Assembly: GCF_024502345.1 (NCBI RefSeq)
Contig: NZ_JALDNN010000001.1
Source: Escherichia coli
GTDB taxonomy: Bacteria; Pseudomonadota; Gammaproteobacteria; Enterobacterales; Enterobacteriaceae
Length of the DNA stretch: 64,000 bases
Strand: one strand, 5' to 3'
Position 1 is the stretch's first letter. Each line of letters opens with the position of its first letter. Positions 19,710 through 64,000 of the stretch are shown one piece after another. Below the pieces are notes generated by a model. That model saw nothing but the letters and a program-made list of their open reading frames with translations. It was not told the origin of the DNA and ran no database searches. The translations under genes were made by a program, and so were the position numbers.

Positions 19710-19732
19710 CGACAGACCAGAAGCGGGAAGCC

Positions 19733-20566
19733 GTGATGTTGATGTGTGATGCGACCGGTCTGTCGCAACGTCGTGCCTGCAGGCTTACAGGTTTATCCCT
19801 GTCGACCTGCCGCTATGAGGCTCACCGTCCGGCTGCTGATGCGCATTTATCAGGGCGCATCACTGAGCTGGCACTGGAGCGCAGGCGTTTTGGCTACCGT
19901 CGTATTTGGCAGTTGCTGCGCCGTGAAGGGCTTCATGTTAATCATAAGCGCGTGTACCGGCTTTATCACCTCAGTGGCCTGAGCGTAAAACGCAGAAGAC
20001 GTCGTAAAGGGCTGGCAACAGAACGTCTGCCGCTGCTCCGTCCGGCGGCGCCCAATCTGACCTGGTCGATGGATTTCGTCATGGACGCACTTTCCACCGG
20101 TCGCAGGATCAAGTGTCTTACCTGCGTCGATGATTTCACAAAGGAATGCCTGACGGTCACTGTTGCCTTTGGGATTTCAGGCGTTCAGGTCACGCGTATT
20201 CTGGACAGCATTGCACTGTTTCGAGGCTATCCGGCGACGATAAGAACTGACCAGGGGCCGGAGTTCACTTGCCGTGCACTGGATCAATGGGCCTTTGAGC
20301 ATGGTGTTGAGTTGCGCTTAATCCAGCCGGGCAAGCCAACGCAGAACGGATTTATTGAGAGCTTTAACGGACGATTTCGCGATGAATGTTTGAATGAGCA
20401 CTGGTTCAGCGATATCGTTCATGCCAGGAAAATTATTAATGACTGGCGGCAGGATTATAACGAATGCCGCCCGCACTCCACGCTGAATTATCAGACACCG
20501 TCTGAATTTGCAGCGGGCTGGAGAAAGGGTCATTCTGAGAATGAAGATTCCGACGTTACTAACTGA
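19733..20566 (+). CDS. IS3-family transposase OrfB (DDE integrase-like catalytic domain)
   Basis: ...[10 protein letters not shown]...[50 protein letters not shown]... Confidence 0.85.
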
Positions 20567-33909: not shown

Positions 33910-36179
33910 GTAGAGTAAGAGGCAGGGCGTAGTCGGACTATTTCCCTGCCTCTCCTCCCCGAACCGGACGTGCACCTTTCAGCGCATCCGGCTCTCCATT
34001 TAAATGCTGGCGAACGCCATTGCCACTTCTGTAAAGCGCGATGTATACGTGTTTCTGGTCTCCGTCCTCAGATAGGGATTACCTTCGGGTAGCCGCCAGC
34101 GGAACAGCTTCTTGCCTTGCCCCACCAACCGGTACAGTATTTCGCCGCTGAGCTTGCCGTGATTGGTTTTACCAAATAAAACCCACGTTTTGCTCTGACC
34201 CGGTTTCGGTGATTTACACCACCACCTCATCAGGGAAGCGATACCTGTACGGTATTTGCGGGCCAGCCAGTGAGCCAGCTTCCAGAACACGACACGGTCG
34301 ATATAACTGAAGACTTTGGCCTTAAAATCAACGAACTGATAGAACATAGCCCAGCCTTTCAGTTTTCGGTTGAGTTGTTCAGCCATATCGACTTTGCTTT
34401 CACTGTAGTTGCCTGATAACAGTGCTGTCAGCGATGCGGCGAAGTTTCTGGCTTTCTCCTGCGGGATCGTTGAGACCACTCGCATCTCGCCATAACGACT
34501 GCGTTTGCGAATGATCCTGTGCCCCAGAAAGATAAAGCCGTCATTAACATGGGTGATTTTAGTCTTATCCATGTTCAGCCTGAGTTTCAGACTGCCTTCG
34601 AGCACACCCCGACACTCCTCCCTGATGGCTTCCGCCTGTGCTTTGGTGCCTTTGACGATGAGGACAAAATCATCGGCATAGCGGCAGTACGCCACCGCGG
34701 GTTTCCACTGCCAGTTTTCTCTGACCGCCGTACTTCGGCCCCGTTGGATACTGTTATTCCAGTACCACCGATCTTTTCTGGCTTTCCCGCTCAGGTAGCG
34801 CTCATGCAGGTATTGATCGAACTCATTCAGCATGATGTTCGATAATAGCGGCGATATAACACCGCCCTGTGGCACACCTTCACTGGCCGCCCGAAAGAGA
34901 CCGACATCGATATGTCCCGCCTTGATGGTTTTCCACAGCAGAGTCATGAAACGTGCGTCACTGATCCTGCGGCGTACAGCCTTCATCAGCAGTCGATGAT
35001 GTACGGTGTCGAAGTAACTGGACAGGTCGCCTTCAATCACCCAGCGTCCCCGGGTTTCACCACAGTCTGTGAGCTGTAATTTCACCGTGCGGATCGCGTG
35101 GTGGACACTGCGCTCAGGCCGGAAGCCATATGAGAGCGTATGAAAATCACTCTCCCATATCGGCTCCATCGCCATCAGCATGGCCCGCTGAACAATACGA
35201 TCCCGCAACGCGGGGATACCCAGTGGTCGCAGTTTGCCGTTGCTTTTAGGGATGTAAACCCGTCTGGCGGGCAAGGGCTGGTAGTGGCCTGAGAGTAATT
35301 CATCCCTGAGGATTTGCAGCTCAACAGCCAGTCTGGCCTGTAGCATTGTTTTGTTCACGCCATCAACGCCGGGGGTATGGGCCCCCTTTGATGAAAGCGT
35401 GATCCGCGCCGCTTCAGCCAGCCATTCTGGTTGTGTTATCAGACGCAGCAGCCGTTGAATCCGTAGGGACGGATCGGTGGCTGCCCATGTGGCAAGCTTG
35501 CGTTGCATTTCGCTGATTATCAAAGGTCTTCACCTCGTTAGGTCAGTTAATTCACGTCGCAAACACATTCAAACTGCTTCCCTTCGCCATGTAATGGGCT
35601 TTCCCCATCGCGGACTACTACGGAAGCTCCGCCAGCCAGCGCGTCATCGGAGCCATGCCCCCTTAACATCCGTCGCTGACCTTCCCCGGTTTACCTGCCT
35701 GGACTCAGGCATACTGAGGAGGCTGCCCGTCGCACTCTTTATCCTTGCTTGCCGCAAGTTGGCAGAAGTCAGCAACGCAAGCGTGATAGACGCTGCTGCC
35801 CCGGTGTTTCGCATACATGTCAAAACACCTTCGACCGGCAGTGCTTACGTATCACTGCCAGTTCCTCCTGCACGGCCTGTCAGATCACGTAGGCCGTGGT
35901 GACGTTTTCAACCCACAGAGGCGGATTAACGGGTTCATGTTCTTCAGCCTTTCAGTACTTAACCTTGAGGATCATCTCGGCTTAGTGATCTCGCCTCAAT
36001 CCCCGTTGTCAGCGGGTTACATCACCCTGCGGGCATGCCGCAGGTCACTGCCGCTCAGGTTCTCCACCGTCACACCCGGTGGGATTGTTGGGTTTCTCAT
36101 CGTGAGTTACCGGTTCAATATTCCAGACAGACTCGCGGTTCATTTAAGCATCCATGCCCGCCCTGAACTCCGGGCACAC
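33910..36179 (-). mobile_element. bacterial group II intron (about 2.27 kb) inserted in IS3-family orfB
   Basis: 5' end GUGUG immediately after exon codon ...DITY; 3' end ...CUAC (AY); domain V GAGCCGGATGCGCTGAAAGGTGCACGTCCGGTTC about 50 nt from the 3' end; internal RT/maturase ORF; joining the flanks restores in-frame ...DITYIRTHEGWLYLAV.... Confidence 0.85.
34000..35523 (-). CDS. group II intron-encoded reverse transcriptase/maturase
   Basis: 507 aa; RT motifs including ...YCRYADDFVLIV... (YADD box) and a C-terminal maturase region; no HNH endonuclease Cys cluster seen. Confidence 0.9.
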   Translation of the reverse strand: MIISEMQRKLATWAATDPSLRIQRLLRLITQPEWLAEAARITLSSKGAHTPGVDGVNKTMLQARLAVELQILRDELLSGHYQPLPARRVYIPKSNGKLRPLGIPALRDRIVQRAMLMAMEPIWESDFHTLSYGFRPERSVHHAIRTVKLQLTDCGETRGRWVIEGDLSSYFDTVHHRLLMKAVRRRISDARFMTLLWKTIKAGHIDVGLFRAASEGVPQGGVISPLLSNIMLNEFDQYLHERYLSGKARKDRWYWNNSIQRGRSTAVRENWQWKPAVAYCRYADDFVLIVKGTKAQAEAIREECRGVLEGSLKLRLNMDKTKITHVNDGFIFLGHRIIRKRSRYGEMRVVSTIPQEKARNFAASLTALLSGNYSESKVDMAEQLNRKLKGWAMFYQFVDFKAKVFSYIDRVVFWKLAHWLARKYRTGIASLMRWWCKSPKPGQSKTWVLFGKTNHGKLSGEILYRLVGQGKKLFRWRLPEGNPYLRTETRNTYTSRFTEVAMAFASI

Positions 36180-49885: not shown

Positions 49886-49940
49886 TGCCCTGCTCACTGA
49901 GCGGGGCATTTTGTTTTATGCCATTCATCAGGAACTGAAT

Positions 49941-50174
49941 ATGCAAGTCACTGACGATACGTCGTTACCGCCAGGGCAATTCACCCGCCGACAGGCTGAA
50001 GCCGTGGTCACGCTTTACCACAACGTCACTATAGAAGATGACCAGGGTACGCACTTTCGGCTGGTTATTCGCGACAGCGAGGGGACGTTAATCTGGCGGG
50101 CCTGGAATTTTGAAGCCAGTGCCGGGGAATGGCTTAACCGCTATCTGCTCAGCCACGGGATCCCCAAACACTGA
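49941..50174 (+). CDS. hypothetical small protein
   Basis: ORF 49911..50174 trimmed to MQVTDDT.... Confidence 0.3.
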
Positions 50175-50277
50175 CACACCACAGCTTAACCCAATAGCGA
50201 CCACACAAAAAAGCCATGCTCCCACAGGAGCATGGCTGTTTTGTTTATGCCGTTAAATCAACAATAAGGAATTTACC

Positions 50278-50673
50278 ATGAGACTAGCCAGCCGCTTTGG
50301 ACGGACAAACCAGATCCGTCGCGATCGTCCGTTAACCCGCGAAGAACTGATGCAGGTCGTTCCCAGCGTATTCAGTGCAGATCGCCACGGTTCCAGGAGC
50401 GAAAAATACGCTTACATACCCACCATTACTCTGCTCGAAAATCTTCAACGCGAAGGCTTTGAACCCTTCTTCGCCTGCCAGTCACGCGTACGCGACCCTG
50501 ACCGCCGGGAGCACACCAAACATCTGCTGCGCCATCTTTGTAGACCGGAGAATGATGTTTGGATGAAAGCGAGTTTTGGTACCCTCATCATTGAGGGTAC
50601 CAACAGCAAAATACTCGGCGAATGCTATTGTCTAAGCACAGCGCCAAGCCTTAGCGGCACGAATAGTTGTTAA
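50278..50673 (+). CDS. DUF932-like (YfjQ-like) protein, probably 3'-truncated
   Basis: MRLASRFGRTNQIRRDRPLTREELMQVVPSVF... resembles N-termini of CP4-prophage DUF932 proteins as I recall them; ORF ends 2 bp before the convergent res gene. Confidence 0.35.
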   Translation: MRLASRFGRTNQIRRDRPLTREELMQVVPSVFSADRHGSRSEKYAYIPTITLLENLQREGFEPFFACQSRVRDPDRREHTKHLLRHLCRPENDVWMKASFGTLIIEGTNSKILGECYCLSTAPSLSGTNSC

Positions 50674-50675
50674 CC

Positions 50676-53414
50676 TTACTCAGCTTTAGCAAACTGCTGG
50701 GTGAAGTAAGCCAATGAATTAGCTTCTTTTACGGCATCATGCGGAATGAGTAAGTATTTCCAAGGTTTGCCACCGTGCTGTGCAAGGTATTCACTGGCAT
50801 GACTACACCATTTCACACCACTGCGGGCTTTTTCGGTGACTTCCTCATTCCAACTGCCGTCTTGGTTTTGATGTTGAGTACTTTTAGTTTCAATCATCAA
50901 TACATAGTCGGCGGTTTCAGCAACGAAATCCGGCACGTATTCAGGATGCTCGCTACCGCGTTTGTAGTACATCTTGAATTGGCCTTTGGCAGGCTTAAAC
51001 CACTTCTCGCAGTCGCGTTCTAAAATCACCGCAAAACGGCGCTCAGTGTCTGAATCAAACTTTTGCAATGGGTATAGACAACGGCTAAAGCCGCCAAAGA
51101 GCATTTGTTTGATGCGACTGACATCGCGTACTGTATCACGGTAGCTTTGCACCGGCTGGTCTTGCGCTATGGTGTAAGCGCAGTCACGTAAGGTACTAAA
51201 GCCACTGCGTACATCGACGACGTACTCGGTTGCTTCTTCAAAGAAGTGGTTGTTCAGTTGCGCATGAATTAACTTCGCAATCGCATCACTCTGGTTTTGC
51301 AGAATGTTCTCAACCACATCGTCGTCGTTTTCAGCGGCCAGTGTATTGACAGCTTGAGTGGCTAGGTCAAACAAAAGTTCAGCTTGCTCGTCGTAAGGAA
51401 TATCGTCGTAATCGAACAGCTTCTTCAAAATATAGTTTTGTTTCACCGGCTCGTAGTTGCCCGAATCGCCTTCGCCACGAATGGTTTGGTGATTGTCTTG
51501 CAGGCTTTGTTGAATCAGAGTTCGGTCGATAGGTTTTAAACCTTTAATGGCAGCAATGTCCAAATCGAACGGGTGATAGCCGGTACGTACTTCACCTGAT
51601 GGTGAAACAATAATACGCGGAATATCTATGGTGTTATCCACCGTGAGCTGGGTGACTTGCTCAACAATCGCCGCAATATCCACCGATTCTTCAGTAAATA
51701 GCTCCCGTTGCTCTTGGGTTAACTGAGCTTTTACTTGTTCGGTGATCTGTGCTTTTACCTCAGTCGTTAACAATGCTTTGCTGGTCGGCGCATCGGTAGG
51801 GCGTGTTTGATATTGCTTGATCACGTCCAATGCAGCGCGGGCAACGGTTTGTTGGTTAGGCGTGGTATAAGTGGCTTTAGGTTCTTGTACCTCACGGTTA
51901 CCGTCTGCACCGGTTGCGGTTACACCTGAACCAGTCAGTTGCTGCTCTAGGTTCGATTTAACCTGCACACTTTGTTTGGTTACATCGTCTTCTGGGCGAT
52001 CTAATACGCGTGTTTTCAGGCGCAGTGGGTTATTCGGGTCGTTAGCCTCATCAACAATTTCTTGGAATTTGTCGTGCGCAACAATGCTCAGCGTATCGAC
52101 GGCTTCAACACCTGTACGTTTGCCATAAGGTAAACGCAAACCACGGCCAATTGACTGTTCAATTAGGGTTCTGGCGTTGGCTGCACGTAGTGGCACAATG
52201 GTGTACAGGTTAGTAACGTCCCAACCTTCTTTCAGCATGTTAACGTGAATGACGATCTCGGTTGGCTCATCGACATGCTCAACATTGAGCAGTGCTTGAA
52301 TAGTTTCTTCTTCTTTTTTACTGCTATCCACTTGAATGACTTTGCCACGGTAGCGGCCGTCAAACACTGTTTCAAGTTTGGTTAAAAGCTCTGCTGCATG
52401 CGTGGTATCACGGGCAATCACCAACATAAAAGGCTTAACTAACTTAGCATCGTTTTCATGTGCATAAGTGATTAAATCCACCTTGGTTTGCTCATGTAAA
52501 CGAATACCGTCCATTAACTTAATGGTTTCTAGTTCGTCTTTATCATATTGGCTGGCATCAAAGTTACGCTGAGTAACAACGGCAGGCTCTTTAACAAAAC
52601 CATCATCCATGGCACAGGCCAATGGGTAATCAATCACCACATTTTTAAAGTGCACAGGGCCACGACTTGATTCGGTAAATGGTGTGGCCGTTAGCTCTAA
52701 TGCGAATAGTGGATTAAGCTCATTGAGCGCACGCATACCGGCATCGGCACGATAGCGATGCGATTCGTCCATCAGCAGCACTAAGTCAGGTAAGTTCGAT
52801 AGATACTCAAAGTAGCTTTCGCCTAGGGTTTCCGCTAAACGCTTAATACGCGGGGCTTTGCCTCCACGTACTTCGGTGTTAATTTTCGCGATGTTAAACA
52901 CATTGATCCGAACCGAACCAAATAGATCGCCCATGACTTGTGCGCCGCGGCTCTCATAGTTATCACCGGTGATCACTTCTGGCGGTGCTAGCACAAAATC
53001 GGTAATGCCTTTAAACACGTACTTCGGTGAGGCGGGCGAGAAATCGCTGATCAGCTTTTCATAAATAGTCAGGTTAGGTGCCAACACAAAATAATTGCGA
53101 ATGCCATGTACCTGATACAAATAGGTAATAAACGCCCCCATCAAACGGGTTTTACCTACACCTGTTGCCAAGGCAAAACACAGTGAAGGAAAGTCACGTT
53201 CAAAATCGCTGAGCTTAGGAAACTGCGCTTTTAAGGTTTCTAATAGCTCCGGCACATCGCGTTTTGGGTTCAGTAGTTTGTGCTCAGAAGCACTAATCGC
53301 CACTGCCAACGCACGCAGCGAATCTTGCTGCGGCTGGCGTAAGCTTAAACGGCCAATAATATTATTAATGGCACGTAATTGGTCGGGTTTTAAGCTTGAT
53401 AAATCCATGGTCAT
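50676..53414 (-). CDS. type III-like restriction enzyme Res subunit (SF2 helicase plus C-terminal PD-(D/E)xK nuclease)
   Basis: 912 aa; Walker A LATGVGKTRLM; DEAH-like motif LVLLMDESHR; C-terminal ...YVPDFVAETADYVLMIETK... reads as a PD-(D/E)xK core. Confidence 0.75.
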   Translation of the reverse strand: MTMDLSSLKPDQLRAINNIIGRLSLRQPQQDSLRALAVAISASEHKLLNPKRDVPELLETLKAQFPKLSDFERDFPSLCFALATGVGKTRLMGAFITYLYQVHGIRNYFVLAPNLTIYEKLISDFSPASPKYVFKGITDFVLAPPEVITGDNYESRGAQVMGDLFGSVRINVFNIAKINTEVRGGKAPRIKRLAETLGESYFEYLSNLPDLVLLMDESHRYRADAGMRALNELNPLFALELTATPFTESSRGPVHFKNVVIDYPLACAMDDGFVKEPAVVTQRNFDASQYDKDELETIKLMDGIRLHEQTKVDLITYAHENDAKLVKPFMLVIARDTTHAAELLTKLETVFDGRYRGKVIQVDSSKKEEETIQALLNVEHVDEPTEIVIHVNMLKEGWDVTNLYTIVPLRAANARTLIEQSIGRGLRLPYGKRTGVEAVDTLSIVAHDKFQEIVDEANDPNNPLRLKTRVLDRPEDDVTKQSVQVKSNLEQQLTGSGVTATGADGNREVQEPKATYTTPNQQTVARAALDVIKQYQTRPTDAPTSKALLTTEVKAQITEQVKAQLTQEQRELFTEESVDIAAIVEQVTQLTVDNTIDIPRIIVSPSGEVRTGYHPFDLDIAAIKGLKPIDRTLIQQSLQDNHQTIRGEGDSGNYEPVKQNYILKKLFDYDDIPYDEQAELLFDLATQAVNTLAAENDDDVVENILQNQSDAIAKLIHAQLNNHFFEEATEYVVDVRSGFSTLRDCAYTIAQDQPVQSYRDTVRDVSRIKQMLFGGFSRCLYPLQKFDSDTERRFAVILERDCEKWFKPAKGQFKMYYKRGSEHPEYVPDFVAETADYVLMIETKSTQHQNQDGSWNEEVTEKARSGVKWCSHASEYLAQHGGKPWKYLLIPHDAVKEANSLAYFTQQFAKAE

Positions 53415-53435
53415 TATAATTATCCTTATTAACCG

Positions 53436-55142
53436 TTAATCTTGCGCTGCATCGTCATCGGCAGACGCATCGTCAGTTAGGTTTGCCACGTTTAACGAAT
53501 AATCGTCCTGACCAAATTGGCACTTGTCTAAAATGGCTTTTGGCAGTTTTTTCAAGGTTAAATTGGTAAAACGACCTGGCTCGCAGCGAAATGCACCACA
53601 CATAACCAGTAAAGTTCGGTCACTGCCAACTTCTTCTGACAGCGCTTCTAATTTATCTACCGATAAGCTTTGTGTGGTGACATAAATATGATCCGTCTCG
53701 GTTGAATAACCGTGATCCCACCAATTCACTTCCGATGGCGCATAGGTAAAACCTTCCAGCTTACAAACGGCTTCGGCGAGCATTTCTGGGTTGTACTCTT
53801 TATTGATCACTTCCAAGCCAAACTTATCTTTCACAATTAAGGTCGGGGCAAGTTTGTAATAGCGGAAGCCACCGCCACCTTGCCAGTTTACAGACTTAGA
53901 AATACCACCTTGATCTTCGCCATCAATCACTTTTTGCAAGCGCGGGATAATATGGGTATGACAATGATCACCTAGCTCGACCGAGATCCAACGTCTTTTC
54001 ATCTTGTGAGCTACAGCAGCAGTAGTTCCCGAACCACCGAATGAATCAAAGACTAAATCGCCTTCTCGCGTACACATTTCGAAAATCCGCTTCAAAAGCG
54101 CTTCGGGTTTTTTTCCATTTTTGAAACTAACGCCGCCTTCATTTGCTATTCCATTCCAACTAATGTCAGTCCAAACATCAGTTATTAGTTCAGCAGGTTG
54201 CATCTCACCGTCAATTTCCAAAAGCCTATTGGAGTAAAAGACCATTTGCCTACCATTTGCGATATAAAAGCCTTCGACATCCTCATTTGGATGTACATAA
54301 ACCTTATCCCTATCTTTCTTTGACTTCTCGATAGTTTCTTTTCTCTTTATTTTAGCACCACCACCAATTGCAACGGATTGAAATACACGTTCTGCATTAT
54401 CAATTGCGAATTGTGCTAATTCATCATCAAATGTATCAGGCAGTTTTTTCTTGGCTTCTTTTGTATCTTTATAGCCATTGGCCTTTGCAAACGCATCGGC
54501 AATACCGCACCACGTCCAACTTTTATAATGGTCATCTGGGTTTAATAGATATTTGTTATATCCCGTATCATATCCTTTAGGTATATAGATTTTGTTAAGC
54601 GGTTTCTGGGTGCGATCTTTTGCGTATACAAGCAAAAAGTTTACTGTGGAGAAAACTGTGGCCCCTGTTGCCTTAAAGCCTGAAGGGTCATTTGTGGTCA
54701 TCGATATGGTATTTAACTGATTTGCACGACCAAAAATCTCGTCCATCAAAACTTTTAAATAAGCCATTTCGCAGTCATCTAAGTGAACGAATATTACTCC
54801 ATCATCACTTAGTAGATTACGAATTATTTCTAACCTATCCCTCATTAAGCCCAGCCAAATGGAATGCTCCAGACCATCATCATAGTGCTCAAAAGCACTT
54901 CCGGTATTGAATGGTGGGTCTATGTAAACACACTTCACTTTGCCTGCATATTCTTGCTCTAGCGCCTTCAATGCCAATAAGTTATCGCCAAAAATCAGTT
55001 TATTATCAAAAATATCGTTTTCGGTCACTTTTTGGCTGGCGTGATAAGACTTGCTCGGGTCTTCTAACAAAATGCGCGGCTCTAACTTTTTGCGCTCGTT
55101 TTTGCCTATCCAGGTCAGTTCTAATTTGGTTTTGCTCATCAT
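53436..55142 (-). CDS. type III-like Mod DNA methyltransferase (beta-class N6-adenine/N4-cytosine)
   Basis: 568 aa; motif IV DPPFNTG near the N-terminus and motif I FDSFGGSGTT about 290 aa later (order IV-TRD-I). Confidence 0.8.
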   Translation of the reverse strand: MMSKTKLELTWIGKNERKKLEPRILLEDPSKSYHASQKVTENDIFDNKLIFGDNLLALKALEQEYAGKVKCVYIDPPFNTGSAFEHYDDGLEHSIWLGLMRDRLEIIRNLLSDDGVIFVHLDDCEMAYLKVLMDEIFGRANQLNTISMTTNDPSGFKATGATVFSTVNFLLVYAKDRTQKPLNKIYIPKGYDTGYNKYLLNPDDHYKSWTWCGIADAFAKANGYKDTKEAKKKLPDTFDDELAQFAIDNAERVFQSVAIGGGAKIKRKETIEKSKKDRDKVYVHPNEDVEGFYIANGRQMVFYSNRLLEIDGEMQPAELITDVWTDISWNGIANEGGVSFKNGKKPEALLKRIFEMCTREGDLVFDSFGGSGTTAAVAHKMKRRWISVELGDHCHTHIIPRLQKVIDGEDQGGISKSVNWQGGGGFRYYKLAPTLIVKDKFGLEVINKEYNPEMLAEAVCKLEGFTYAPSEVNWWDHGYSTETDHIYVTTQSLSVDKLEALSEEVGSDRTLLVMCGAFRCEPGRFTNLTLKKLPKAILDKCQFGQDDYSLNVANLTDDASADDDAAQD

Positions 55143-55196
55143 TTCTGTGCTCTTATCTTGTGTTCGTTACTTAGCGTTATTATTCTACAGCAATCG

Positions 55197-57062
55197 CTAC
55201 GCAGGTTGTGCTTGGCGATTACTCGCTTGGGTGTTTTGCCCTTGTCGGCGTTGCGCTTGCTCGGCTAAGTAACTGAATAAATTCTGGTTGTGTGGGTCGT
55301 TCGCTTGAAGGCGTTCTTGTTTTGCTACAACTGCCGGGCTTTCTGCCAAGTTTAAATGGCTAATCCACACCGTTTGCATTAAACGTGCGGTATCGCCCAA
55401 GCGTTTGAAGTATGCGTGCGGCGCACTGCCTAATACTAATGCCGTAAAACTATCAAAAAATTGCTGACGAAGTTCATCAAAAGCGTGGCTGATTAATCTT
55501 TTAAATGCCGCTTGCTCGGTAATCTCAGGAGCCGTAATAGCGCCTTCAAACTGCGCCATTAATAGCGTGGTTATGCAGTAAGTAAAATGTCGATATACCA
55601 GTTTTTCTGGGCTTGGACTACTGCGCTCTGCGTTTGTACATAAGACTTGAATAGCCAGATAGCAGTTCACCGCGTTAATGGCGACGGCCCCCTGTAAATC
55701 TGTACTAAAAACGGCTTGGTACTCGGCACTTTCTTGGTTAGTGAATTTGCTTGGCTCTACTTTTAGCTGATAAGGCACGCGTACATCACCGTGCATACAG
55801 GCCAATGCTTTGGCCAAGGTGTCGATAGTAATGCTGCGAATACCCGCTGCTGCGCTTTGTTGTGGGCGGTAGAGATATTCAACACCAAACATTTTCATCT
55901 CTTGGCGCAAGCGTTCTTGGGTATCATCCAGCGCGGCAAAGTTGGCTAAATCGACCGGGTTTTGCAGGTTACGCGCTTTGGTTACTTGTTTGTGAAATGC
56001 ATCGTTACCCGTGTTGATAATGGTTACCATCACTTGAGCTTGGCTGATGTCTGCATTTGGGTTTTCACGCATAAACTGTGCAGCACTAGCAATGGTTTGT
56101 GCACCGTTAACGACGGACAGGCCATCGACTGCAACATGCTTGCTACCTGTGTGGCCTCTAATATTCCCTTTTGGTTTTACTGCATTGCCAACCAGAGTAA
56201 TGCCATTGTTAAGATAAATAAAATTTTCCGGCTCATGTAAAAGGGTGTCTTTAATCGCCCTATTTACCCCACGTCTGCCAGCACCAATAAAATAGCGAAT
56301 ATTTTTCTCGTAAAGTTTACGGTCATGAGTAGTGTGCAAGGCAATTAAATCGGTTAGCTTGGCGATACCAAATACGACTTTTCGTGGTTGTTCTTGCACT
56401 CGGAACTTATATACAGCGACACGCTCGTTTACCGTATCAACCGCATGTTCACTGCGAAGAGCCTGCTCAACATCGGTGGCGGTGTATTCTTGATATTCAG
56501 GTGCGATTTGCTCTTCACCTTCATCAATCAGCTCTTGGATCGCTGGTTGTAGGTAGTTTTGTGCTTGTATGGTAATGCCATTACCTGTGTATGCGACAAG
56601 CAGTTGAATTCTTTCGCACTCGTCTAATGCGGCTTCAATATTTGCTTGAAGGTTTTGAACATTTTGATTAAAGCGGTGAAATTGCTTGTTTAAAAGTAAC
56701 TTTACACCCTCAATAAAAGCCTGTGCTTCGCCCAATTGGAATTGCGCATCTTCCTTCATTTTTGACTGTACTAAGTACAGAGTCTGATCAGCTTCGTGAT
56801 AATAAATTGCATCAATACCATGGTCTTCATAGTCGTCCACCACAGCTTTTGCTGCGGTCACTACGTCTAAATCGAATTTTTGCTGTAGTACGAATGCGCT
56901 AAAAGCCCTGGAAATTTGCTTTTTAGGTTTATCTTCTCGCCCACCTTGCCCAAGCAATGGCGGTAAATGCGGCACAAAACGCTGCTGTAGCAGTTCTTTT
57001 AATAGGGTAAGAAATTGTGGTTGTAATGCTGCCAAGTGAGTTGTCCTTATTTTTATTGCCAA
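55197..57062 (-). CDS. AIPR-like putative abortive-infection protein (tentative) with N-terminal PD-(D/E)xK-like motif
   Basis: 621 aa; N-terminal ...[22 protein letters not shown]... resembles a nuclease core; family assignment from memory only; start overlaps the upstream Abi_2 gene by about 10 nt. Confidence 0.35.
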
Positions 57063-57994
57063 ATTGGCCGCGCTTGCCAGTCGGCTGGAAAGCCCATGCG
57101 GTCAATGTCTATTTGGTGATGATTTATCAATTGGATGAGTCGTTGCTTCCAGTGATGTTCACCACTGATCACATCCATGAGGTAGCCCAACATCACCAAG
57201 GTGTTATAAATTTTTCGTAAACGCCGGTCGCTATCGGGCAGGTTTTGCAAGCTTTGAATCAGTGCCGGTTCACCATGGCGTGGCAGTACCGTGGTTTTAA
57301 TAAAATCACGGTTCCATAGCCTAGAATGATGGGCACTTAAATTGCGCACTAGCGACAAATGCTCACAGAATGAGGTAAGAGTTTTTTCATCTAGGCCGTA
57401 GCTTTTGCTTATTACCTGGCGGTCGGCACGCAGCTTGATATTGCTGTACCAACAGGAAAGTTGCCCCATGGTTAACAGCTCAACACAGGCCCAAATAGGG
57501 GGTAGTGGCTCTTGATATTTTTGCGTAAGGTGCTTGATGAACTCTTCACGACTGCACTTTACCTCACCCGTGAGTTTGCCAAGGCTACTGGCGTATTCTA
57601 ATAAATCACCAAAGAGCTCTGGTTTTAAATGAGGGTGCGCGGTTTGGTATTTTTGGCTCAACTGATACGCAATTTGTGTGCGTAATGACACCTCAAAACG
57701 CTCGATGGCATCTAGCACTAACAAACGTAGTTCACGGTCGAAAACATATAGGCTTAGGACTTGGTCAAACTGAGTACCTGTGATAAACGTATGACTGGCA
57801 TGATCTTGCTCATAGGGCAAACAATAAGCCGCAAAACGATAGTAGTTCAGCTGTGCTAAGTAAAACTCAGCTTTCGGGACATCACTGATCACTAGGCCAC
57901 GTTGTTGCAACAAGCGTACTTGATCGCTAAAGCTTGTAGGGGGCTTGGTAAAAGCGACTTTAGGGACTGGTTTGCGGCTCATTTGACCTCCCAT
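57053..57994 (-). CDS. Abi_2 family (AbiD/AbiF-like) abortive infection protein
   Basis: 313 aa; ...FGDLLEY... and ...[19 protein letters not shown]... match the hallmark Abi-like motifs as I recall them. Confidence 0.65.
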
Positions 57995-58139
57995 GCAACA
58001 GAAGATCGAATTTTGCGGGCCCCAGAAACGAGTAACCCCTCACAGGGCGCTGATCTGACGGGTAGCGGGAGGGGTGTTGTTGCAGTGATCATAGCCCCAA
58101 ACTGAAAAAAGTCAATGCTGGCGTTGAAATTGATTGTCA

Positions 58140-61034
58140 TCATTGAACCGTCCACCCAATGGTAAATAGGGTCTCTTGGCTGGTTTTTTTATTCAGTTTG
58201 CCTTCTAAGCTTTCAATCAGCTGTTCGCGCTTTTCGTCCACTTCATCTTGTTTATCAAACAGTTCACGGCGGCTTTTATTGCGCTGACTTTCTAACTGGC
58301 GCTGCTGTTTTTGCAGGGCAAGTTTCTCTTCCAGGGTTGGAGCTATTTTGGCTTCGCGGCGTACTTGCTTGATTTGCTTATCAAGCTCTTTTATAGATTG
58401 TTCAAGCCCTTCTTTTAAATCGTCTGCCCAAGAATCTAACTTGTTTACCTCTTGCTCGAAGAAGCTGAGATTACGATCGTTAACTTGCTTTTCGATGCCT
58501 AGTCTCGACTGCTGTAACGCATGCTGCAGCGCATATTGATAGCCAGGATATAAGGCGGCAAGTTCTTGCTCACTTACTTCACTTTGCACACAGGCACTAA
58601 GCTGCATCAGCTTTTGCACGACTTCACTTGGTAGCGGATGACCATGTTCATCTTGCGCGGCGAACAATAAATGGTCTTCGCTACGCTCCAATGATTCGAC
58701 ACTAAATTTTTGTAGGCTTAGTACACCTGACAAACCCACTAAGGGTTCTAGCATACTGATTTTTGTTTGGTGGTTGCTGTAATCAAAAATTACGCTGGCA
58801 ATGGGTAATTCACGTTGAAGCGCGTTGCTGATCACCCATTCACCCAGCGGGTGGGTGATACGATACACATGGGCATTGGCTAGTTTACCGGTTTCAATAC
58901 TGCCGCTTTGCTGTCCTCGGCGTACAAGTTGGTAGCTACCTGTAGGAGCCTGATTGATACTTTGATTAAGCGTAAAACTATGGTTGCTTGGGTCAATGTC
59001 TGCGATAGCTGCAAGTTCATGCGTACTGAGTTGCCAGAACCAACGGCCTACTTTATCGAGGCGTTGCTGCGCGGCATCTAGCTGAATTTTGAGTAAGTCG
59101 TGAATATCTTCATCGAAATTTTCCAGCAGCAGTTGCTGGGTCTCGCGCATTTTTTGGTTGATGTCGGCTTCTAGCTCTTTTTGCAATTGATCAAAAGCTG
59201 CTTCTATTTCCGCCGGTTGCCGACAAGTCTCGTATATATTTTGGATGCGTTTTTCAAAATCAATACCAGATTCAATGCTGCCTAGCACATCGTCCGATGC
59301 ACCAAACACGCCATCGAACAGATGGAATTTTTCAGTCAGTAACTCTAAAACACGCTGATCGGCTTTGTTGGCTTCGTTGAGGAAGTTGATCACCACAACA
59401 TCAAATTGCTGCCCATAGCGGTGACAACGGCCAATACGTTGCTCTACTCGTTGTGGGTTCCATGGTAAGTCATAGTTAATAAGTAACGAACAGAACTGTA
59501 AGTTAACCCCTTCTGCAGCCGCTTCGGTTGCGATCATAACTTCGGCATGATGGCGGAAGTAATCAATTAGGGCAGTACGGCGGTCAATTTGCGGTGAACC
59601 ACTCACCTTATCACTACCTTGGTTTTCAGCTAACCACTGCTGATAAACTTTGGTTGCTTCTGGATGGTTATTGCTGCCACTAAAGGTGACTAATTTATCA
59701 GCAAAGCCATTCGCCTCGAGGAAACGAGCTAGGTATTCTTGCGTGCGCTTCGATTCGGTAAAAATAATGACTTTACGTGGCGCCCCCATTTCCTCCATTT
59801 TGGCAAACCCTTGATTAAGCGCCGTTAGCAAGGCTTGGGTTTTACTGTCGGTGGTAATGGATTTAGCCTGCTCGATATAATGCTCAAGCTCGGCTATTTC
59901 AGCATTGAGTAACTCAAAGTCAATATCACTCTCAGGGGTATTGCTTTGTGTTTCTTCTACATACTCGCTGTACTCTTCTCCTAAATCATCACTCTCAACA
60001 AGCTCACTGATAATATCGAGGTCCGATTTAGCCTGTACTTTCAAGTCAACCAATCGGCGCTTTATAGTTTCGAGTGTGTTGAGCACTGCGTGCGAACTAG
60101 ATGCTAATAGCTTTCTCAGTATAAGGCCGGTTAAATGACGTTGGCTCTTGGGTAGTGCATAGCTCTCGTCCTTTTCCAATAAGGCACTAATACTTTCGTA
60201 AAGTGCCATCTCAGCATTAGAGGGTGTAAACGGTACGGTGAGTGTTTGACGTTGGGTATAGCGGACGTATTCGAGTACATCTTTGCGCAAGGTACGCTGA
60301 ATAAACCCGGTAAGTCGTTTCTTTAAATGCCCTAGCGCACTTTCGTTATTGACAAAGTGTTGTTTGAAGCTTCGCTCATCGCCGAAGATTTGATCGTCGA
60401 TAATGGTTGAAAGTCCATACAATTCCATGAGCGAGTTTTGTAAGGGTGTTGCAGTAAGTAATAGCTTTTTACTGCCATCTAATGCGCGGCGTAGCGTTTG
60501 ACCCATTTTATTGCTGCTACGATGTGCATTACGTAGCTTGTGCGCTTCGTCGATGACGACAATATCCCATGGCTCTAGCATTAGCTGCGTTTCCATTCTC
60601 GCAGCATAGTGATAGGACATAATAGAAACGCAGTGATTAGCTAGCGGGTTAGTTTGACCATTGTTAACACTAATGCGCCACGTTTTTGCATCAAGCACTT
60701 GCGTTGGTAAATTAAACTTATCGCCCAATTCCTGCGCCCACTGGCGTCGCAATGACGCCGGGCAGATGATCAATATGCGGCGTTTACGCTCTGCCCAATA
60801 CTGTGACAGTACTAAGCCTGCTTCAATAGTTTTCCCTAAGCCCACTTCATCAGCGAGTACAACACCTTTGCTTAACGGGTTGTTGAGCGCAAAAAGTGCC
60901 GCATGAATTTGGTGCGGATTGAGATCAACACTGGCATCAAAAAGAGATTGAGACAATTTATCAACGCCATTTTCAGCGTGGCGAATGGTTAATTCCTGCG
61001 CAAAGTATTTTGCTTGATAATCAGTTATTACCAT
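58140..61034 (-). CDS. SNF2-family (SWI2/SNF2) DEAD/DEAH-box helicase with long coiled-coil C-terminal extension
   Basis: ORF 58140..61115 trimmed to the ATG at 61034 that overlaps the stop of the upstream HTH gene (ATGGTAATAACTGA); motifs LADEVGLGKTIEAG, IVVIDEAHKLRN, helicase C motif ...QRIGRCHRYGQ.... Confidence 0.85.
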   Translation of the reverse strand: MVITDYQAKYFAQELTIRHAENGVDKLSQSLFDASVDLNPHQIHAALFALNNPLSKGVVLADEVGLGKTIEAGLVLSQYWAERKRRILIICPASLRRQWAQELGDKFNLPTQVLDAKTWRISVNNGQTNPLANHCVSIMSYHYAARMETQLMLEPWDIVVIDEAHKLRNAHRSSNKMGQTLRRALDGSKKLLLTATPLQNSLMELYGLSTIIDDQIFGDERSFKQHFVNNESALGHLKKRLTGFIQRTLRKDVLEYVRYTQRQTLTVPFTPSNAEMALYESISALLEKDESYALPKSQRHLTGLILRKLLASSSHAVLNTLETIKRRLVDLKVQAKSDLDIISELVESDDLGEEYSEYVEETQSNTPESDIDFELLNAEIAELEHYIEQAKSITTDSKTQALLTALNQGFAKMEEMGAPRKVIIFTESKRTQEYLARFLEANGFADKLVTFSGSNNHPEATKVYQQWLAENQGSDKVSGSPQIDRRTALIDYFRHHAEVMIATEAAAEGVNLQFCSLLINYDLPWNPQRVEQRIGRCHRYGQQFDVVVINFLNEANKADQRVLELLTEKFHLFDGVFGASDDVLGSIESGIDFEKRIQNIYETCRQPAEIEAAFDQLQKELEADINQKMRETQQLLLENFDEDIHDLLKIQLDAAQQRLDKVGRWFWQLSTHELAAIADIDPSNHSFTLNQSINQAPTGSYQLVRRGQQSGSIETGKLANAHVYRITHPLGEWVISNALQRELPIASVIFDYSNHQTKISMLEPLVGLSGVLSLQKFSVESLERSEDHLLFAAQDEHGHPLPSEVVQKLMQLSACVQSEVSEQELAALYPGYQYALQHALQQSRLGIEKQVNDRNLSFFEQEVNKLDSWADDLKEGLEQSIKELDKQIKQVRREAKIAPTLEEKLALQKQQRQLESQRNKSRRELFDKQDEVDEKREQLIESLEGKLNKKTSQETLFTIGWTVQ

Positions 61035-61227
61035 CCAACACCCCTTTTCCTTGAGCTGCTTGCGTACTGATCCATTCTTCAAGATCGGATTGTTTAAAGC
61101 GCCAAGCATTGCCAACTTTAAAAGCAGGAATTTTATGTACCGCTGCTAGACGGTAAACAGTTCTCTCATTTACCTTCAAATACTCAGCTACTTCTTTAAT
61201 TGTCAGAACGGTATCAGTCATTTTCAC
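61021..61227 (-). CDS. small excisionase/MerR-like HTH DNA-binding protein, first gene of the operon
   Basis: 68 aa; ...LTIKEVAEYLKVNERTVYRLAAVHKIPAFKVGNAWRFKQSDLEEWI.... Confidence 0.6.
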   Translation of the reverse strand: MKMTDTVLTIKEVAEYLKVNERTVYRLAAVHKIPAFKVGNAWRFKQSDLEEWISTQAAQGKGVLDGNN

Positions 61228-61433
61228 TCGGCCACTTTGAAAAGTGCGTCAATTATCTAATGCGAGTGTCAAAATAGTACAAATAAGTACATGAATCAAT
61301 CTTATTCGGCACTTGCCGGAGCTCCTTGGCTTTAATCCTCATCAATTTTAGGTACAGTTTTCAGGCTCGGGGATAAAGTATAAAGAATGTCGTACTGCCG
61401 CTGCCAGAGCAATATTCCCCCCTGCTGGTTGTA

Positions 61434-62093
61434 TCAGAGATGGTATGCCGGTATTTTGCGGGTTGTTCCCGTCAGGTTATCGTGCACCTCCACGGTCGTC
61501 GTTACCACCGGCATTCCGGCCTTTCTCAGCCTCAGGACATCAGCCGCAATACGCTGACTGCCAAACCAGAACAGGCCGTCCAGTGCAGTCACCAGTAAAC
61601 CTGCCTCCAGCGCATACTTCAGCCGTTCACGGGGCGCTTTCACTTCCCTGGCAACCTGCTGATATGGCGATGATGTGCTTTCATTCCCAACCACGCGACG
61701 AATACGGTGAGACAGATGATACCGGTATATATCCGGCACACCAGAAAGACTGGCCTTCAGGCTGTACACGCAGCCAAACCGTTTATCGTTGAACACCACA
61801 TTTTTCTGGCTGATGCCCCATTCTTCACGCAGCGCGGCAATCAGTTGTGGTGTCCGGGTAAGCAGCAAGCGAAAAGGCAGCTCAAAACTGGTGACGTAAT
61901 CCACATTCAACAATGCAATACGCAGTCGTTCTTCTGGCCCGGCCTCTGTCTGCCGACACTCCTCCAGAACATCCTGCCACTGCCGGCGAAGACGGGGCGA
62001 TTCGTTCCGTTCTGTAAAACAGTATTTATCTGCCAGATAATCAATTCGTGTACGCATACTGAAAAGAATTCCGTATAAAGATTCAGCAGACAA
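61434..62093 (-). CDS. hypothetical protein (219 aa)
   Basis: ORF only. Confidence 0.4.
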   Translation of the reverse strand: MSAESLYGILFSMRTRIDYLADKYCFTERNESPRLRRQWQDVLEECRQTEAGPEERLRIALLNVDYVTSFELPFRLLLTRTPQLIAALREEWGISQKNVVFNDKRFGCVYSLKASLSGVPDIYRYHLSHRIRRVVGNESTSSPYQQVAREVKAPRERLKYALEAGLLVTALDGLFWFGSQRIAADVLRLRKAGMPVVTTTVEVHDNLTGTTRKIPAYHL

Positions 62094-62145
62094 AACTTTA
62101 TCAGTCTGTAAAAATTAACGGAAGAGTCGATATTTCTCCCGGTCA

Positions 62146-62688
62146 TCACCGGATGATTGTTGCAATAACCAGTGGCCTCAGAGACTGAACAGCCGTTTTT
62201 AACGCAACGTATTGCTCTGATGTATCAGGCCGGGTAACCCGAAAACACCTTTCCACCCGACATTGTCCGCCCGTATCCATCCCCCGCCAGGTCTGCTGCA
62301 GTAAATCCACCACTTGCGAACATTGTTCATCAACTGTGACACTGGCTCGCGGGTGACAAATACTCGTCTGGCTGAGCAGCAACAGGCATCGCATTGTTGC
62401 TCCTCCATGTTGTTCCCGCAACCAGCGTAATACCACCGGCGATGATGGACTGGTCGTGTGATTACGCTCAGTAATACGTTCATAAAAGGAAGTACAGAAT
62501 GCATGAATATGTTGCCCGTTGATGTTTCCTTCTGCCGAATGGAGCGTGAAGTGAAATGCCAACAGATGTGGCCAGTGGTCCACCCCCTGCTGAACAAAAC
62601 GCCGGATTTCCCCCGGCGCTGAAAGTAAGGCTTCGGTTATTTGCACTATTTTACCCCTGTGAATTTTGTTAAGCCGGTGCAGACACAC
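62146..62688 (-). CDS. YagK/YfjJ-like hypothetical protein (type A, second copy)
   Basis: Paralog of ORF 40449..41015. Confidence 0.45.
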   Translation of the reverse strand: MCLHRLNKIHRGKIVQITEALLSAPGEIRRFVQQGVDHWPHLLAFHFTLHSAEGNINGQHIHAFCTSFYERITERNHTTSPSSPVVLRWLREQHGGATMRCLLLLSQTSICHPRASVTVDEQCSQVVDLLQQTWRGMDTGGQCRVERCFRVTRPDTSEQYVALKTAVQSLRPLVIATIIR

Positions 62689-62913
62689 GGAAAGCGCACA
62701 TCAACACCAGCACAGTACGATACAAACACCAGTGACTGACGGGACGAAGGAAATGACGAATCAGTCAGGAAATGATGACAAACAGTTGGCTGACCAGAGG
62801 GTGTCAGCAGAAAGATGAGCGGGAGTGTCGCCAGCACCAGGGACAGGGCTGATTTCCGCAATACCAGCGCCGGCATTTTGCACATTGACAGCGTACTGGC
62901 ATTACAACACGTT

Positions 62914-63144
62914 TCATGCTGCTCCTCGTGATTCCTCAATTCGCTGCTGCATCCACTGCTCCACTTCACTTTTGTACCAGCGGCTGCTGCGCCCCAGTTT
63001 GATGGGTTTAGGGAAATGACCTTCACTGATCAGCCTGTAAAACCATTTATCGGTCATGCCGGTGAAACTGGTGATGTAGTTCATGTCGATCAGGGGATCA
63101 TCGGCACGCAGCAATACGCTGTCGTGGCTTGTTGTGGTCAACAT
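62914..63144 (-). CDS. AlpA-like phage regulatory protein (second copy)
   Basis: ORF 62914..63264 trimmed to MLTTTSHDSVLLRADDPLIDMNYITSFTGMTDKWFYRLISEGHFPKPIKLGRSSRWYKSEVEQWMQQR. Confidence 0.6.
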   Translation of the reverse strand: MLTTTSHDSVLLRADDPLIDMNYITSFTGMTDKWFYRLISEGHFPKPIKLGRSSRWYKSEVEQWMQQRIEESRGAA

Positions 63145-63212
63145 GGTCAGAATGTCCTCAGTGAGATTTATGAAGAATGGGGTAATACGGGAAATGGGAT
63201 TGCGTGCTGCTT

Positions 63213-63803
63213 TCAGCACTGCCAACCGGGATTGCCGGCAAGGCAACGGGCTTCCGGATCGCACACTCCACGGCGATCGCGGGCGAAATCACTGAACGCC
63301 CAGATAAGGTCCTTAAACAGGGCTTCGCAGTCCGGTGACCGGCGATCCAGTACCACATCCCGGGTGATCTGCTTCTGGTACAGCTTTGCTTCACCTGGTG
63401 ACGCGAAACCCAGCACATTACTCCAGGCATCCAGTATCAACCGATCCAGTTCGGGGCCGTCGAAATACTCCTGTCTGACGCACAGCACCACGTGGTATTC
63501 CGGCTTTTCCGGATGACGGGTCAGGAGCCAGCAGAGGTCACGCCCGGGCGTTGCATTCATCAGCGCACTGACAGTTTCGATAAAGGCCATACCAAACCAG
63601 GTCTTTCTGCTGCTGAAGGTAGTGTCATATTCACATGGCAGACGAAGCAGGATCCGCCGTACCCGGGAGCCGGACTGCTCACGCAGCGCACGCTCAAGAA
63701 CGCCGATGACTTTGCTCTGATAAGATGGCCAGAAGGGGGCAAGGCTATAGTCGAAATAAGGAATAGCATTCATAAGATATGCTCCGTTATGCGCAGCCCA
63801 CAA
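63213..63803 (-). CDS. YagK/YfjJ-like hypothetical protein (type B, second copy)
   Basis: ...EYHVVLCVRQEYFDG...; related to ORF 42596..43201. Confidence 0.45.
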   Translation of the reverse strand: MWAAHNGAYLMNAIPYFDYSLAPFWPSYQSKVIGVLERALREQSGSRVRRILLRLPCEYDTTFSSRKTWFGMAFIETVSALMNATPGRDLCWLLTRHPEKPEYHVVLCVRQEYFDGPELDRLILDAWSNVLGFASPGEAKLYQKQITRDVVLDRRSPDCEALFKDLIWAFSDFARDRRGVCDPEARCLAGNPGWQC

Positions 63804-64000
63804 CGCGTCCTGCCCGAGAATGAGCTGACGTGTTATGGTTTGCGGATGGGGTTGATGGAATACGTGAAGAACCGAAACAGAACGGGAAGATCAGGTCACC
63901 GACAAGGGGCGAACACCGGATACAGGTTCAGGATGAATGATCTCCGTTGACTTCGGTTCACATCATTAATCAAGGCGGTAAGGTTTTACCGACGGAGTGT

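Follow-up and report, generated by a model that had tools for sequence, protein, structure and literature searches.

A probable recombination scar between two genomic islands beside a defence gene cluster of Escherichia coli

Introduction

In a 64,000-nucleotide stretch of Escherichia coli DNA (assembly GCF_024502345.1, contig NZ_JALDNN010000001.1), referred to here as the window, a small open reading frame (ORF) converges on res, the gene of a type III restriction subunit. Only 2 nt (50674–50675, 'cc') lie between their stop codons, the ORF ending at 50673 and res at 50676, as had been noted before. The original prediction described the ORF as a DUF932-like gene lacking its C-terminal half, the 3′ end of which had been replaced by a defence cassette of 10.5 kb. 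The ORF end and the res stop were taken as the insertion boundary. What this ORF consists of, and whether its end marks the border of an inserted cassette, are the questions addressed here.

A truncated DUF932 gene

The left part of the locus comprised the following features:

49941–50174, plus strand: intact DUF905 gene of island A (PF06006, 119 bits; 100% identical to the annotated gene of EH09-18-41)
50212–50237, no strand: bidirectional terminator-like hairpin between the DUF905 gene and the truncated gene, a pattern match only (consensus scan), with an 11-bp stem, seven GC pairs and T runs on both strands
50278–50673, plus strand: chimeric ORF of 131 aa in three pieces, ATG start, TAA at 50671–50673
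50278–50532, plus strand: DUF932 N-terminal remnant, codons 1–85 of 272, 100% DNA identity to NZ_CP063503
50524–50533, no strand: junction J1 with microhomology CTGCTGCGCC, crossover within CC at 50532–50533
50534–50603, plus strand: last 70 bp of orfX (3′ end), sharing 100% identity over this stretch with orfX of E. coli selC islands
50577–50604, no strand: perfect 12-bp hairpin TTGGTACCCTCA-TCAT-TGAGGGTACCAA at the orfX end; homology to a cassette-less element stops directly after it
50604–50675, no strand: distal end of the defence cargo and 3′ flank of res, in which the chimeric ORF has its final 22 codons and its stop

The ORF is a truncated DUF932 gene. Residues 1–85 belonged to DUF932, residues 86–109 to orfX read in frame and residues 110–131 to read-through into the cargo flank. 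The family assignment of the original prediction was confirmed by PF06067, which matched with 33.2 bits (cut-off 23; E 5.8e-8). The match was confined to residues 37–86, corresponding to profile positions 2–52 of 227, and left the domain incomplete. In BLASTP, WP_009652424.1, an annotated DUF932 protein of 272 aa from E. coli EH09-18-41, was identical over ORF residues 1–85 (85/85) and showed no similarity beyond. The last 46 residues were non-DUF932 sequence. Members of the 90% cluster of WP_009652424.1 were 272–273 aa long rather than about 130 aa, and the truncation therefore stands. It was deeper than the half that had been proposed, with 187 of 272 aa (about 69%) missing. An AAGGA motif was located 8 nt upstream of the ATG. 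Because only 52 of the 227 domain positions were kept, the product is most probably non-functional and the ORF a pseudogene. A literature search gave no information on the function of DUF932. In E. coli K-12, yfjQ and yafZ are DUF932 genes of CP4-57/CP4-6-type islands, with about 273 aa.

The N-terminal 85 aa of DUF932 and the upstream YfjT-like, DUF4234 and DUF905 genes were those of an island of this CP4-57/CP4-6 type, and this side of the locus is termed island A. Unlike these islands, the window held only the first third of DUF932, and the downstream module was replaced by DNA of another element. In its native context, the full-length DUF932 gene was followed by antirestriction, RadC, DUF987, YeeU and CbtA genes and by others as far as yghD. 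In blastn, the part of island A beyond the break, with the 3′ part of DUF932 and the downstream genes, had no match in the whole window.

The joint between island A and orfX

A base-level walk along the sequence showed that the window equals island A through position 50533 and the cassette-bearing references from position 50532 onwards. In megablast, positions 49900–50533 were 100% identical to the DUF905 and DUF932 region of NZ_CP063503, and positions 50524–51300 matched the res flank of 28 cassette-bearing E. coli genomes with 99.9% identity. The break at 50532/50533 was thus inside the ORF, 143 bp upstream of the res stop. The microhomology CTGCTGCGCC matched its partner sequence CTGCTGCACC in nine of ten positions, with the 10-bp consensus CTGCTGCRCC; an in-register match of at least 9/10 is calculated to occur by chance at about 3e-5. 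The GC content dropped from about 0.55 to about 0.46 near 50500. Neither repeats nor IS elements were present at the joint.

The DNA joined to DUF932 had been regarded as the terminus of the cassette. It turned out to be the last 70 bp of orfX. The remnant shared 67 of 81 nt with orfX of E. coli E14 and, up to position 50564, 34 of 42 nt with the JGI contig L017. In tblastn, it matched residues 185–210 of the E14 orfX (E 1e-6). Versions of orfX with 212–236 aa read through the codons that form ORF residues 86–109. The hairpin at the orfX end had a folding z-score of −4.9 on the plus strand and −4.0 on the minus strand, and none of 200 shuffled sequences folded equally well. It was kept with substitutions in E14.

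Positions 50604–50675 had no homology to the cassette-less elements of E14 (L020) and L017, and a terminator scan detected no intrinsic terminator between J1 and the res stop. In its native contexts, the cassette ran leftward past the breakpoint of the window, either into orfX or to an IS66 end. Ten distinct left contexts of orfX held the selC integrase, an IS or fimbrial genes, but in no case island A. In cassette-less relatives, type I R-M sets took the place of this cargo after orfX and were likewise convergent. These comparisons indicate that orfX is a conserved backbone gene of mobilizable genomic islands (MGIs) targeting yicC and the left neighbour of their variable cargo. They also place the true cargo boundary at about 50603/50604, and with the break at 50532/50533 neither the ORF end nor the res stop held as an insertion boundary. 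The 2-bp spacing of the stops is inherited from the native arrangement of orfX and res and is meaningless in itself.

The defence cargo and its right flank

The cassette genes covered about 10.5 kb, from 50676 to 61221, and were followed by island backbone:

50676–53414, minus strand: res, type III restriction subunit, 912 aa (Pfam ResIII; PADLOC REase_III, 634 bits)
53436–55142, minus strand: mod, type III DNA methyltransferase, 568 aa (Pfam N6_N4_Mtase; PADLOC MTase_III, 944 bits)
55197–57035, minus strand: AIPR/AbiU-like protein, 612 aa as annotated in homologous loci (Pfam AIPR, 133.8 bits; PADLOC AbiU)
57053–57982, minus strand: Abi_2/AbiD-like protein, 309 aa as annotated (Pfam Abi_2, 175 bits; PADLOC AbiD, 238 bits)
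58019–58082, no strand: invariant non-coding motif of 57–64 nt with the core GAGTAACCCCTCACAGGGCGCTGATCTGACGGGTAGCGGGAGGGGT, splitting the cassette into two modules
58140–61034, minus strand: DrmD-like SNF2 helicase, 964 aa (Pfam SNF2-rel_dom and Helicase_C; PADLOC DrmD)
61021–61221, minus strand: MAD1-like/excisionase-family HTH protein, 66 aa, first minus-strand cargo gene (PADLOC mad1; TIGR01764)
61434–64000, minus strand: CP4-57-like island backbone with an ECs1377-family gene, an AlpA-like HTH gene and others (NCBIfam ECs1377_fam; Pfam Phage_AlpA)

Type III R-M was represented by the adjacent Mod/Res pair. Equivalents of DrmA, DrmB and DrmC were not detected in the cassette with Pfam and PADLOC, and the SNF2 helicase scored 697 bits against NCBIfam DISARM_DrmD_b, below the cut-off of 950. 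The HTH protein was just above the cut-off for NCBIfam antiphage_MADS1 (82 bits; cut-off 80). With PADLOC, mad1 was matched alone, and none of the cassette proteins matched mad2–8. In contrast to DISARM and MADS loci, AbiD and AIPR genes were interleaved. For these reasons, the absence of DrmA/B/C and mad2–8, the sub-cut-off DrmD and the interleaved AbiD and AIPR genes, the cassette represents neither canonical DISARM nor canonical MADS but a mixed defence cluster. The literature held only passing mentions of MADS.

The cassette and its right flank up to position 64000 were contiguous in other E. coli genomes with 99% identity, and the right flank was collinear with APEC E16002 and MB46 to the window end. 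The backbone at 61434–64000 is not the remainder of island A.

Relationship to yicC-targeting mobilizable islands

The SXT/R391-mobilised MGI subfamily (MGIVflInd1-like) is characterised by a cis-acting locus with about 63% identity to the SXT oriT over about 282 bp and by the core genes cds4, cds8 and rdfM. Among the MGIs inserted at the 3′ end of yicC, the MGIVflInd1 family is mobilised by SXT/R391 ICEs and MGIVmi1 by IncA/C plasmids (PMC4542580, PMC4344509, PMC5397120, PMC5704250). In E. coli E14, yicC (L020, 9427–10290) was followed by int (10606–11856), the element starting directly after yicC. The same position directly after the host's own yicC was found in Methylophaga, Reinekea and Marinobacter, and host yicC preceded int in three loci (L038, L048 and L050). 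This placement fits the published MGIs (PMC4542580, PMC4344509). The int, primase, orfX and DUF927 proteins shared 84–99% amino acid identity across 28 species with differing cargo. A conserved core, variable R-M cargo and a host range of marine Gammaproteobacteria are consistent with earlier work (PMC4542580).

Relatives of the cassette segment occurred in Alteromonas, Pseudoalteromonas, Methylophaga and other marine Gammaproteobacteria. As in MGIs, they had a small conserved core, type I or type III R-M cargo and HipA. An intact MGI version with cargo of the window type was present in Pantoea sp. ARC607. The window differed from MGIs in holding only a fragment, consisting of 70 bp of orfX, the cargo and the HTH gene, without integrase or yicC junction. 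Neither the yicC or attL sequence of the E14 element nor an int of the MGI type was present in the window. ARAGORN revealed no tRNA or att landmark, and no core (non-island) gene was recognised in the window. An integrase fragment beside orfX in selC islands was considered as an MGI integrase remnant and rejected, as only the intact selC integrase was matched, with 25% identity. The cassette is the variable cargo of a yicC-targeting MGI.

Origin of the joint

Direct observations comprise the coordinates and identities of the pieces, their microhomology, the native context of each partner and the recurrence of the joint on independent contigs. The explanation that we favour, with a probability of about 85%, is that the 131-aa ORF is the scar of an illegitimate recombination that joined DUF932 of island A to the end of the MGI gene orfX. 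A 10-bp imperfect microhomology would have connected codon 85/86 of DUF932 in the CP4-57-like island to a point 70 bp before the orfX end. The event would have been RecA-independent, whether it deleted DNA between two neighbouring islands or joined two separate DNA molecules. It is interpreted as a deletion or illegitimate-recombination joint because both partners are truncated. Island A would have lost the 3′ two-thirds of DUF932 together with antirestriction, RadC, DUF987, YeeU/CbtA, DUF5983, DUF957 and DUF4942 genes. The MGI would have lost all DNA to the left of the 3′ end of orfX. This part comprised the integrase, a HigB-like gene and a primase-helicase in intact MGI relatives; in the known E. 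coli selC versions, it comprised decayed integrase and ArdA fragments only. The joint probably came to be in frame by chance, so that translation would pass from DUF932 through the orfX tail and the 3′ flank of the cargo and end at a TAA 2 bp short of the res stop.

J1 resembled short-homology deletion and novel-joint scars in its abruptness, in the 9/10 microhomology, in the truncation of both partners and in the lack of repeats or IS elements. It differed in that the mechanism is inferred from the joint sequence, with no parental arrangement recovered. An ancestor with intact island A followed by the MGI was not found, and the partners were side by side in no complete E. coli genome. A tandem ancestor would fit a deletion in cis, but because no ancestral arrangement was found, such a deletion is indistinguishable from an inter-molecular joint.

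A discrete defence cassette of about 10.5 kb inserted into DUF932, with its boundary at the ORF end and the res stop, would account for the truncated gene, for the lower-GC foreign DNA behind it and for the extent of the cassette genes. Of this claim, the replacement of the DUF932 3′ end by cassette-bearing foreign DNA held, but insertion as a 10.5-kb unit did not. The break was inside the ORF and the orfX remnant and not at the cassette end, and the 3′ part of DUF932 and the distal DNA of island A were absent on the far side. The contiguity of the cassette with its right flank to 64000 in other genomes left no empty site. Elsewhere, the cassette had different and longer left flanks, with no terminus common to all copies, and it was composite, split by the backbone motif at 58019–58082. 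Such an insertion is therefore very unlikely. J1 could also be an assembly chimera of two islands that share a short repeat. Both sides of J1 occurred together in none of 5426 complete E. coli genomes (megablast), and an exact scan with the junction 37-mer gave no match in 100,044 species-representative genomes. Against a chimera, J1 was assembled independently in at least ten fetched contigs from different samples and assemblers, running up to 33–38 kb across J1, and the exact chimeric protein is on record on at least 17–25 independent contigs (ENA, Logan, NCBI). The junction 61-mer was present in 10/10 fetched loci, which were 99.83–100% identical to the window. The imperfect 10-bp repeat is too short to mislead assemblers repeatedly. 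An artefact is extremely remote; J1 is real and confined to one lineage.

A functional role of the 131-aa product is highly improbable as well. A fusion or short DUF932-like protein under selection, modulating for example res or the island, would be in line with the in-frame joint, the retained ATG and AAGGA, the identity of the ORF in all copies and transcription that would run antisense into the res 3′ end. An in-frame joint, however, has a prior probability of one in three, and the domain is left with 52 of 227 positions, followed by a 24-aa fragment of an unrelated protein and 22 aa of non-coding flank. Among 15 billion sequences, the protein formed a cluster of one. Since all copies are near-identical and belong to one near-clonal lineage, their identity is uninformative on selection and no evidence of constraint.

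The illegitimate-recombination scar that we favour is of an ordinary kind. The locus itself is minor and adds one gene remnant, left where a mosaic enterobacterial island recombined, to others of its type. Annotations should treat the ORF as a pseudogene or fusion remnant of DUF932 instead of a gene, shift the cassette boundary to about 50603/50604 and place the recombination joint at 50532/50533. The cluster of type III R-M, AIPR, AbiD and SNF2 genes is widely spread, with copies in Proteus, Pantoea, the selC islands of E. coli and IncFIB plasmids of Salmonella, and the comparison shows that yicC-type mobilizable islands carry it as cargo. Pieces of such islands were captured without their integrase into CP4-57-like islands. 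The locus illustrates how defence cargo may move between island backbones by deletion and illegitimate recombination and not by site-specific insertion.

The motif at 58019–58082

The invariant motif that splits the cassette was located directly after orfX in cassette-less relatives. Rfam yielded nothing on the motif, neither at the gathering threshold in a search of the whole window nor at E ≤ 1 in a search of positions 57900–58250. Rfam matches were obtained elsewhere only, to an IS1222 frameshift element and a group II intron. A structured RNA was considered and rejected, as the motif folded no better than shuffled sequences (z +1.0 to +1.5). IncC plasmids had no blastn match to the motif region. 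An unannotated Vibrio cidicii 'plasmid' matched the region, a match that is uninformative.

It is possible, if rather unlikely, that the motif is a cis-acting site of yicC-type MGIs, either part of an oriT mimic or a docking or recombination site for the exchange of defence cargo modules. If so, such a site would explain the modular cargo on either side, and if it were still working, a helper ICE could mobilise the fused island and flanking DNA in an Hfr-like manner.

Structure and origin of the chimeric ORF

The open reading frame (ORF) that ended just short of the convergent res stop, with 2 nt between the two stop codons as originally predicted, encoded 131 amino acids. Pfam PF06067 (DUF932) matched it with 33.2 bits (cut-off 23), confirming the original family call. 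The match was confined to residues 37-86, corresponding to profile positions 2-52 of 227. Residues 1-85 showed 85/85 identity to a 272-aa DUF932 protein of E. coli EH09-18-41, and members of the cluster of this protein were 272-273 aa long. Full-length homologues are thus not about 130 aa long, and the DUF932 gene is truncated, as had been supposed. The ATG start and an upstream AAGGA motif were still present.

The chimeric ORF and its pieces
50278..50673, +, chimeric ORF, 131 aa, TAA at 50671-50673
Residues 1-85, +, DUF932
Residues 86-109 (50534-50603), +, orfX, in frame
Last 22 codons, +, read-through into the distal cargo end

The fusion point J1 emerged when positions 49900-51300 were compared by megablast with 5426 complete E. 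coli genomes. Two genomes matched query bases 1-634 at 100% identity with DUF905 and DUF932, 28 matched bases 625-1401 at 99.9% with the 3' flank of res, and none of the 5426 covered both parts. Base by base, the window equalled the DUF932 reference up to 50533 and the cassette references from 50532 onward. At 50524-50533 the parental sequences were CTGCTGCGCC and CTGCTGCACC, matching in register at 9/10 positions (chance probability ~3e-5 by our own arithmetic). GC dropped from ~0.55 to ~0.46 across J1, which fell at codon 85/86, 143 bp short of the res stop.

In other genomes, the left flank of the cassette ran on past J1 into the convergent gene orfX, a conserved backbone gene of mobilisable genomic islands (MGIs) targeting yicC. 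Annotated with 192 aa in E. coli selC islands owing to an in-frame stop, orfX had a frame that remained open beyond this stop up to a TAA 2 bp before res. Because this open frame passes through the same codons as the tail of the window ORF, the latter is a three-piece mosaic, and the 2-bp stop-to-stop spacing is a native orfX/res trait inherited by the chimera. Judged from its sequence, the chimeric ORF is in frame yet almost certainly inert. The in-frame stop was at 8962-8964 of comparison locus L004 and, in 28 E. coli genomes with cassette-bearing selC islands, at the matching position. Versions without it, from E. coli E14, Klebsiella and metagenomes, reached 212-236 aa and read '...LALLHHLC(R/G/A)PE(N/S)DVW...'. 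Given this difference in length, orfX was probably already a pseudogene in the selC-island lineage.

The orfX stretch 50534-50603 shared 67/81 nt with E14 (tblastn E 1e-6). Homology to cassette-less elements stopped at 50603 (E14 allele) or 50564 (L017 allele). The former position is just past a hairpin inside the chimeric ORF (50577-50604; fold z -4.9), which has a perfect 12-bp stem and a 4-nt loop. The hairpin marks where orfX ends in the native element and was kept with substitutions in E14; lacking a U-tract, it was rejected as a canonical terminator. The cargo boundary is the end of cassette-less homology (50603 by the E14 allele), not the ORF end, where the insertion boundary had been placed.

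Formation and spread of the junction

The original prediction had the 10.5-kb cassette replacing the 3' end of the DUF932 gene. The truncation of that gene held, while a simple insertion did not: no island A DNA followed the cassette, and its right flank was contiguous with it elsewhere. The 5 kb downstream of the break in intact island A, the CP4-57-like source of the DUF932 gene, were missing from the window (the rest of DUF932, antirestriction, RadC, DUF987, YeeU, CbtA, DUF5983, DUF957, DUF4942). Right of the cassette were instead an ECs1377-family gene, an AlpA-like HTH and other CP4-57-type backbone genes. Positions 50524-64000 were collinear with APEC E16002 at 99% identity, and strain MB46, without the res/mod part, was collinear from the MAD1-like gene as far as 64000. 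Since both partners are truncated, J1 is a deletion or illegitimate-recombination joint. The most likely mechanism would be short-homology illegitimate recombination, joining island A with an MGI fragment that lacked an integrase and would already have been embedded in a CP4-57-like backbone. The DUF932 C-terminus and the antirestriction/RadC/toxin-antitoxin module of island A would thereby have been lost. The parental arrangement of the two partners was not found among the genomes compared, including the 5426 complete E. coli genomes. Overall, J1 is an unremarkable scar left by recombination, of a kind already known.

An assembly artefact was rejected because the junction recurred: the exact 131-aa protein was recorded on 17-25 contigs (ENA, Logan, NCBI assemblies), and 10/10 fetched loci held the junction 61-mer. 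Over up to 20 kb, these loci shared 99.83-100% identity with the window. Neither the 5426 complete E. coli genomes nor 100,044 species-representative genomes contained the junction; it marks one recent lineage. On one metagenomic contig with the junction (L005 10399-13135), res was split into ORFs of 565 and 362 aa, either by a frameshift or by an assembly error.

Other independent deletion joints were found in or beside the same cassette (L023, L027 at 10768-11409, L002), and the region seems prone to deletions. After one of them, 213 aa of res remained and unrelated genes followed; that of CFSAN004176 (L002) lay ~150 bp past the HTH gene beside setC, near the equivalent of 61376. Just upstream of the ECs1377-family gene, at 61376-61381, the window differed from APEC E16002 and TB06051 by a 6-bp indel, reading AAAGTATAAAGAAT against AAAGAAT elsewhere.

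The cassette and its native element

Based on Pfam, NCBIfam and PADLOC models, the cassette combines a type III R-M system with accessory defence genes and falls short of a full MADS or DISARM locus.

Features of the cassette
50676-53414, -, type III Res
53436-55142, -, type III Mod
55197-57035, -, AIPR/AbiU-like protein
57053-57982, -, Abi_2/AbiD-like protein
58019-58082, non-coding motif (57-64 nt) between Abi and SNF2
58140-61034, -, DrmD-like SNF2 helicase
61021-61221, -, MAD1-like/excisionase-family HTH

The HTH, 'mads1' in RefSeq, barely exceeded the NCBIfam MAD1 cut-off (82 vs 80 bits) and matched the excisionase-family HTH (TIGR01764) equally. As E14 has HTH genes so named at the head of unrelated type I R-M cargo, its copy sharing only 34% identity with that of the window, the name may over-assign the MADS system. 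The same cassette also occurred on conjugative Salmonella plasmids. Variants without the AIPR gene (CUPF09, MB46, Salmonella IncFIB plasmid pR18.1595_113k) carried IS1 or IS256 adjoining the motif, between it and SNF2.

Cassette-less relatives had the order int, HigB-like, HTH, TOTE-type primase-helicase (AEP) and orfX, followed by other convergent cargo (type I R-M sets, Fic, AAA_15), HTH and a DUF927 protein. The integrase directly followed yicC in E14 and the host's own yicC in Methylophaga, Reinekea and Marinobacter. Published MGIs integrate in the 3' end of yicC (PMC4542580, PMC4344509, PMC5397120, PMC5704250), and the relatives of the cassette segment resembled them in three features: integration site, host range (Alteromonas, Pseudoalteromonas, Methylophaga, others) and R-M and HipA cargo. 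In Pantoea sp. ARC607, such an island seemed to be intact and bore window-type cargo. All that the window retained of it was the cargo, the HTH gene and 70 bp of orfX. Across the family (E14, L016-L018, L033-L060), core proteins were 84-99% identical in only distantly related Gammaproteobacteria, ranging from marine Alteromonadales to Pantoea, Proteus and E. coli, which implies recent, wide horizontal spread.

The motif recurred at L020 (E14) 16697-16753, L017 7237-7300 and in L033-L060. Because it follows orfX directly in cassette-less yicC-type islands, the res-mod-AIPR-Abi block (~7.4 kb) appears, by comparison with E14, to have entered as a module between orfX and the motif; SNF2 and HTH would be a second. 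A 46-nt core was identical in 28 gammaproteobacterial species representatives, and 33 E. coli genomes each had one copy of it. On Salmonella IncFIB plasmids and one plasmid of Teredinibacter, the motif was again accompanied by Abi. Neither an Rfam match nor a significant RNA fold was obtained for 58019-58082. Hypothetically, it could be an oriT mimic or a cargo-docking site, and it is the only element here that might repay further work.

Elsewhere in the window, another defence cluster (5394-13433) comprised a DUF262 (GmrSD-like) gene and a type I R-M system (HsdM, HsdS, HsdR), with ~96% identity to islands in many E. coli genomes. Rfam matches at 19676-19793 and 33910-33996 were an IS1222-type frameshift element and a group II intron domain, both within the IS-rich stretch separating the left island from island A.
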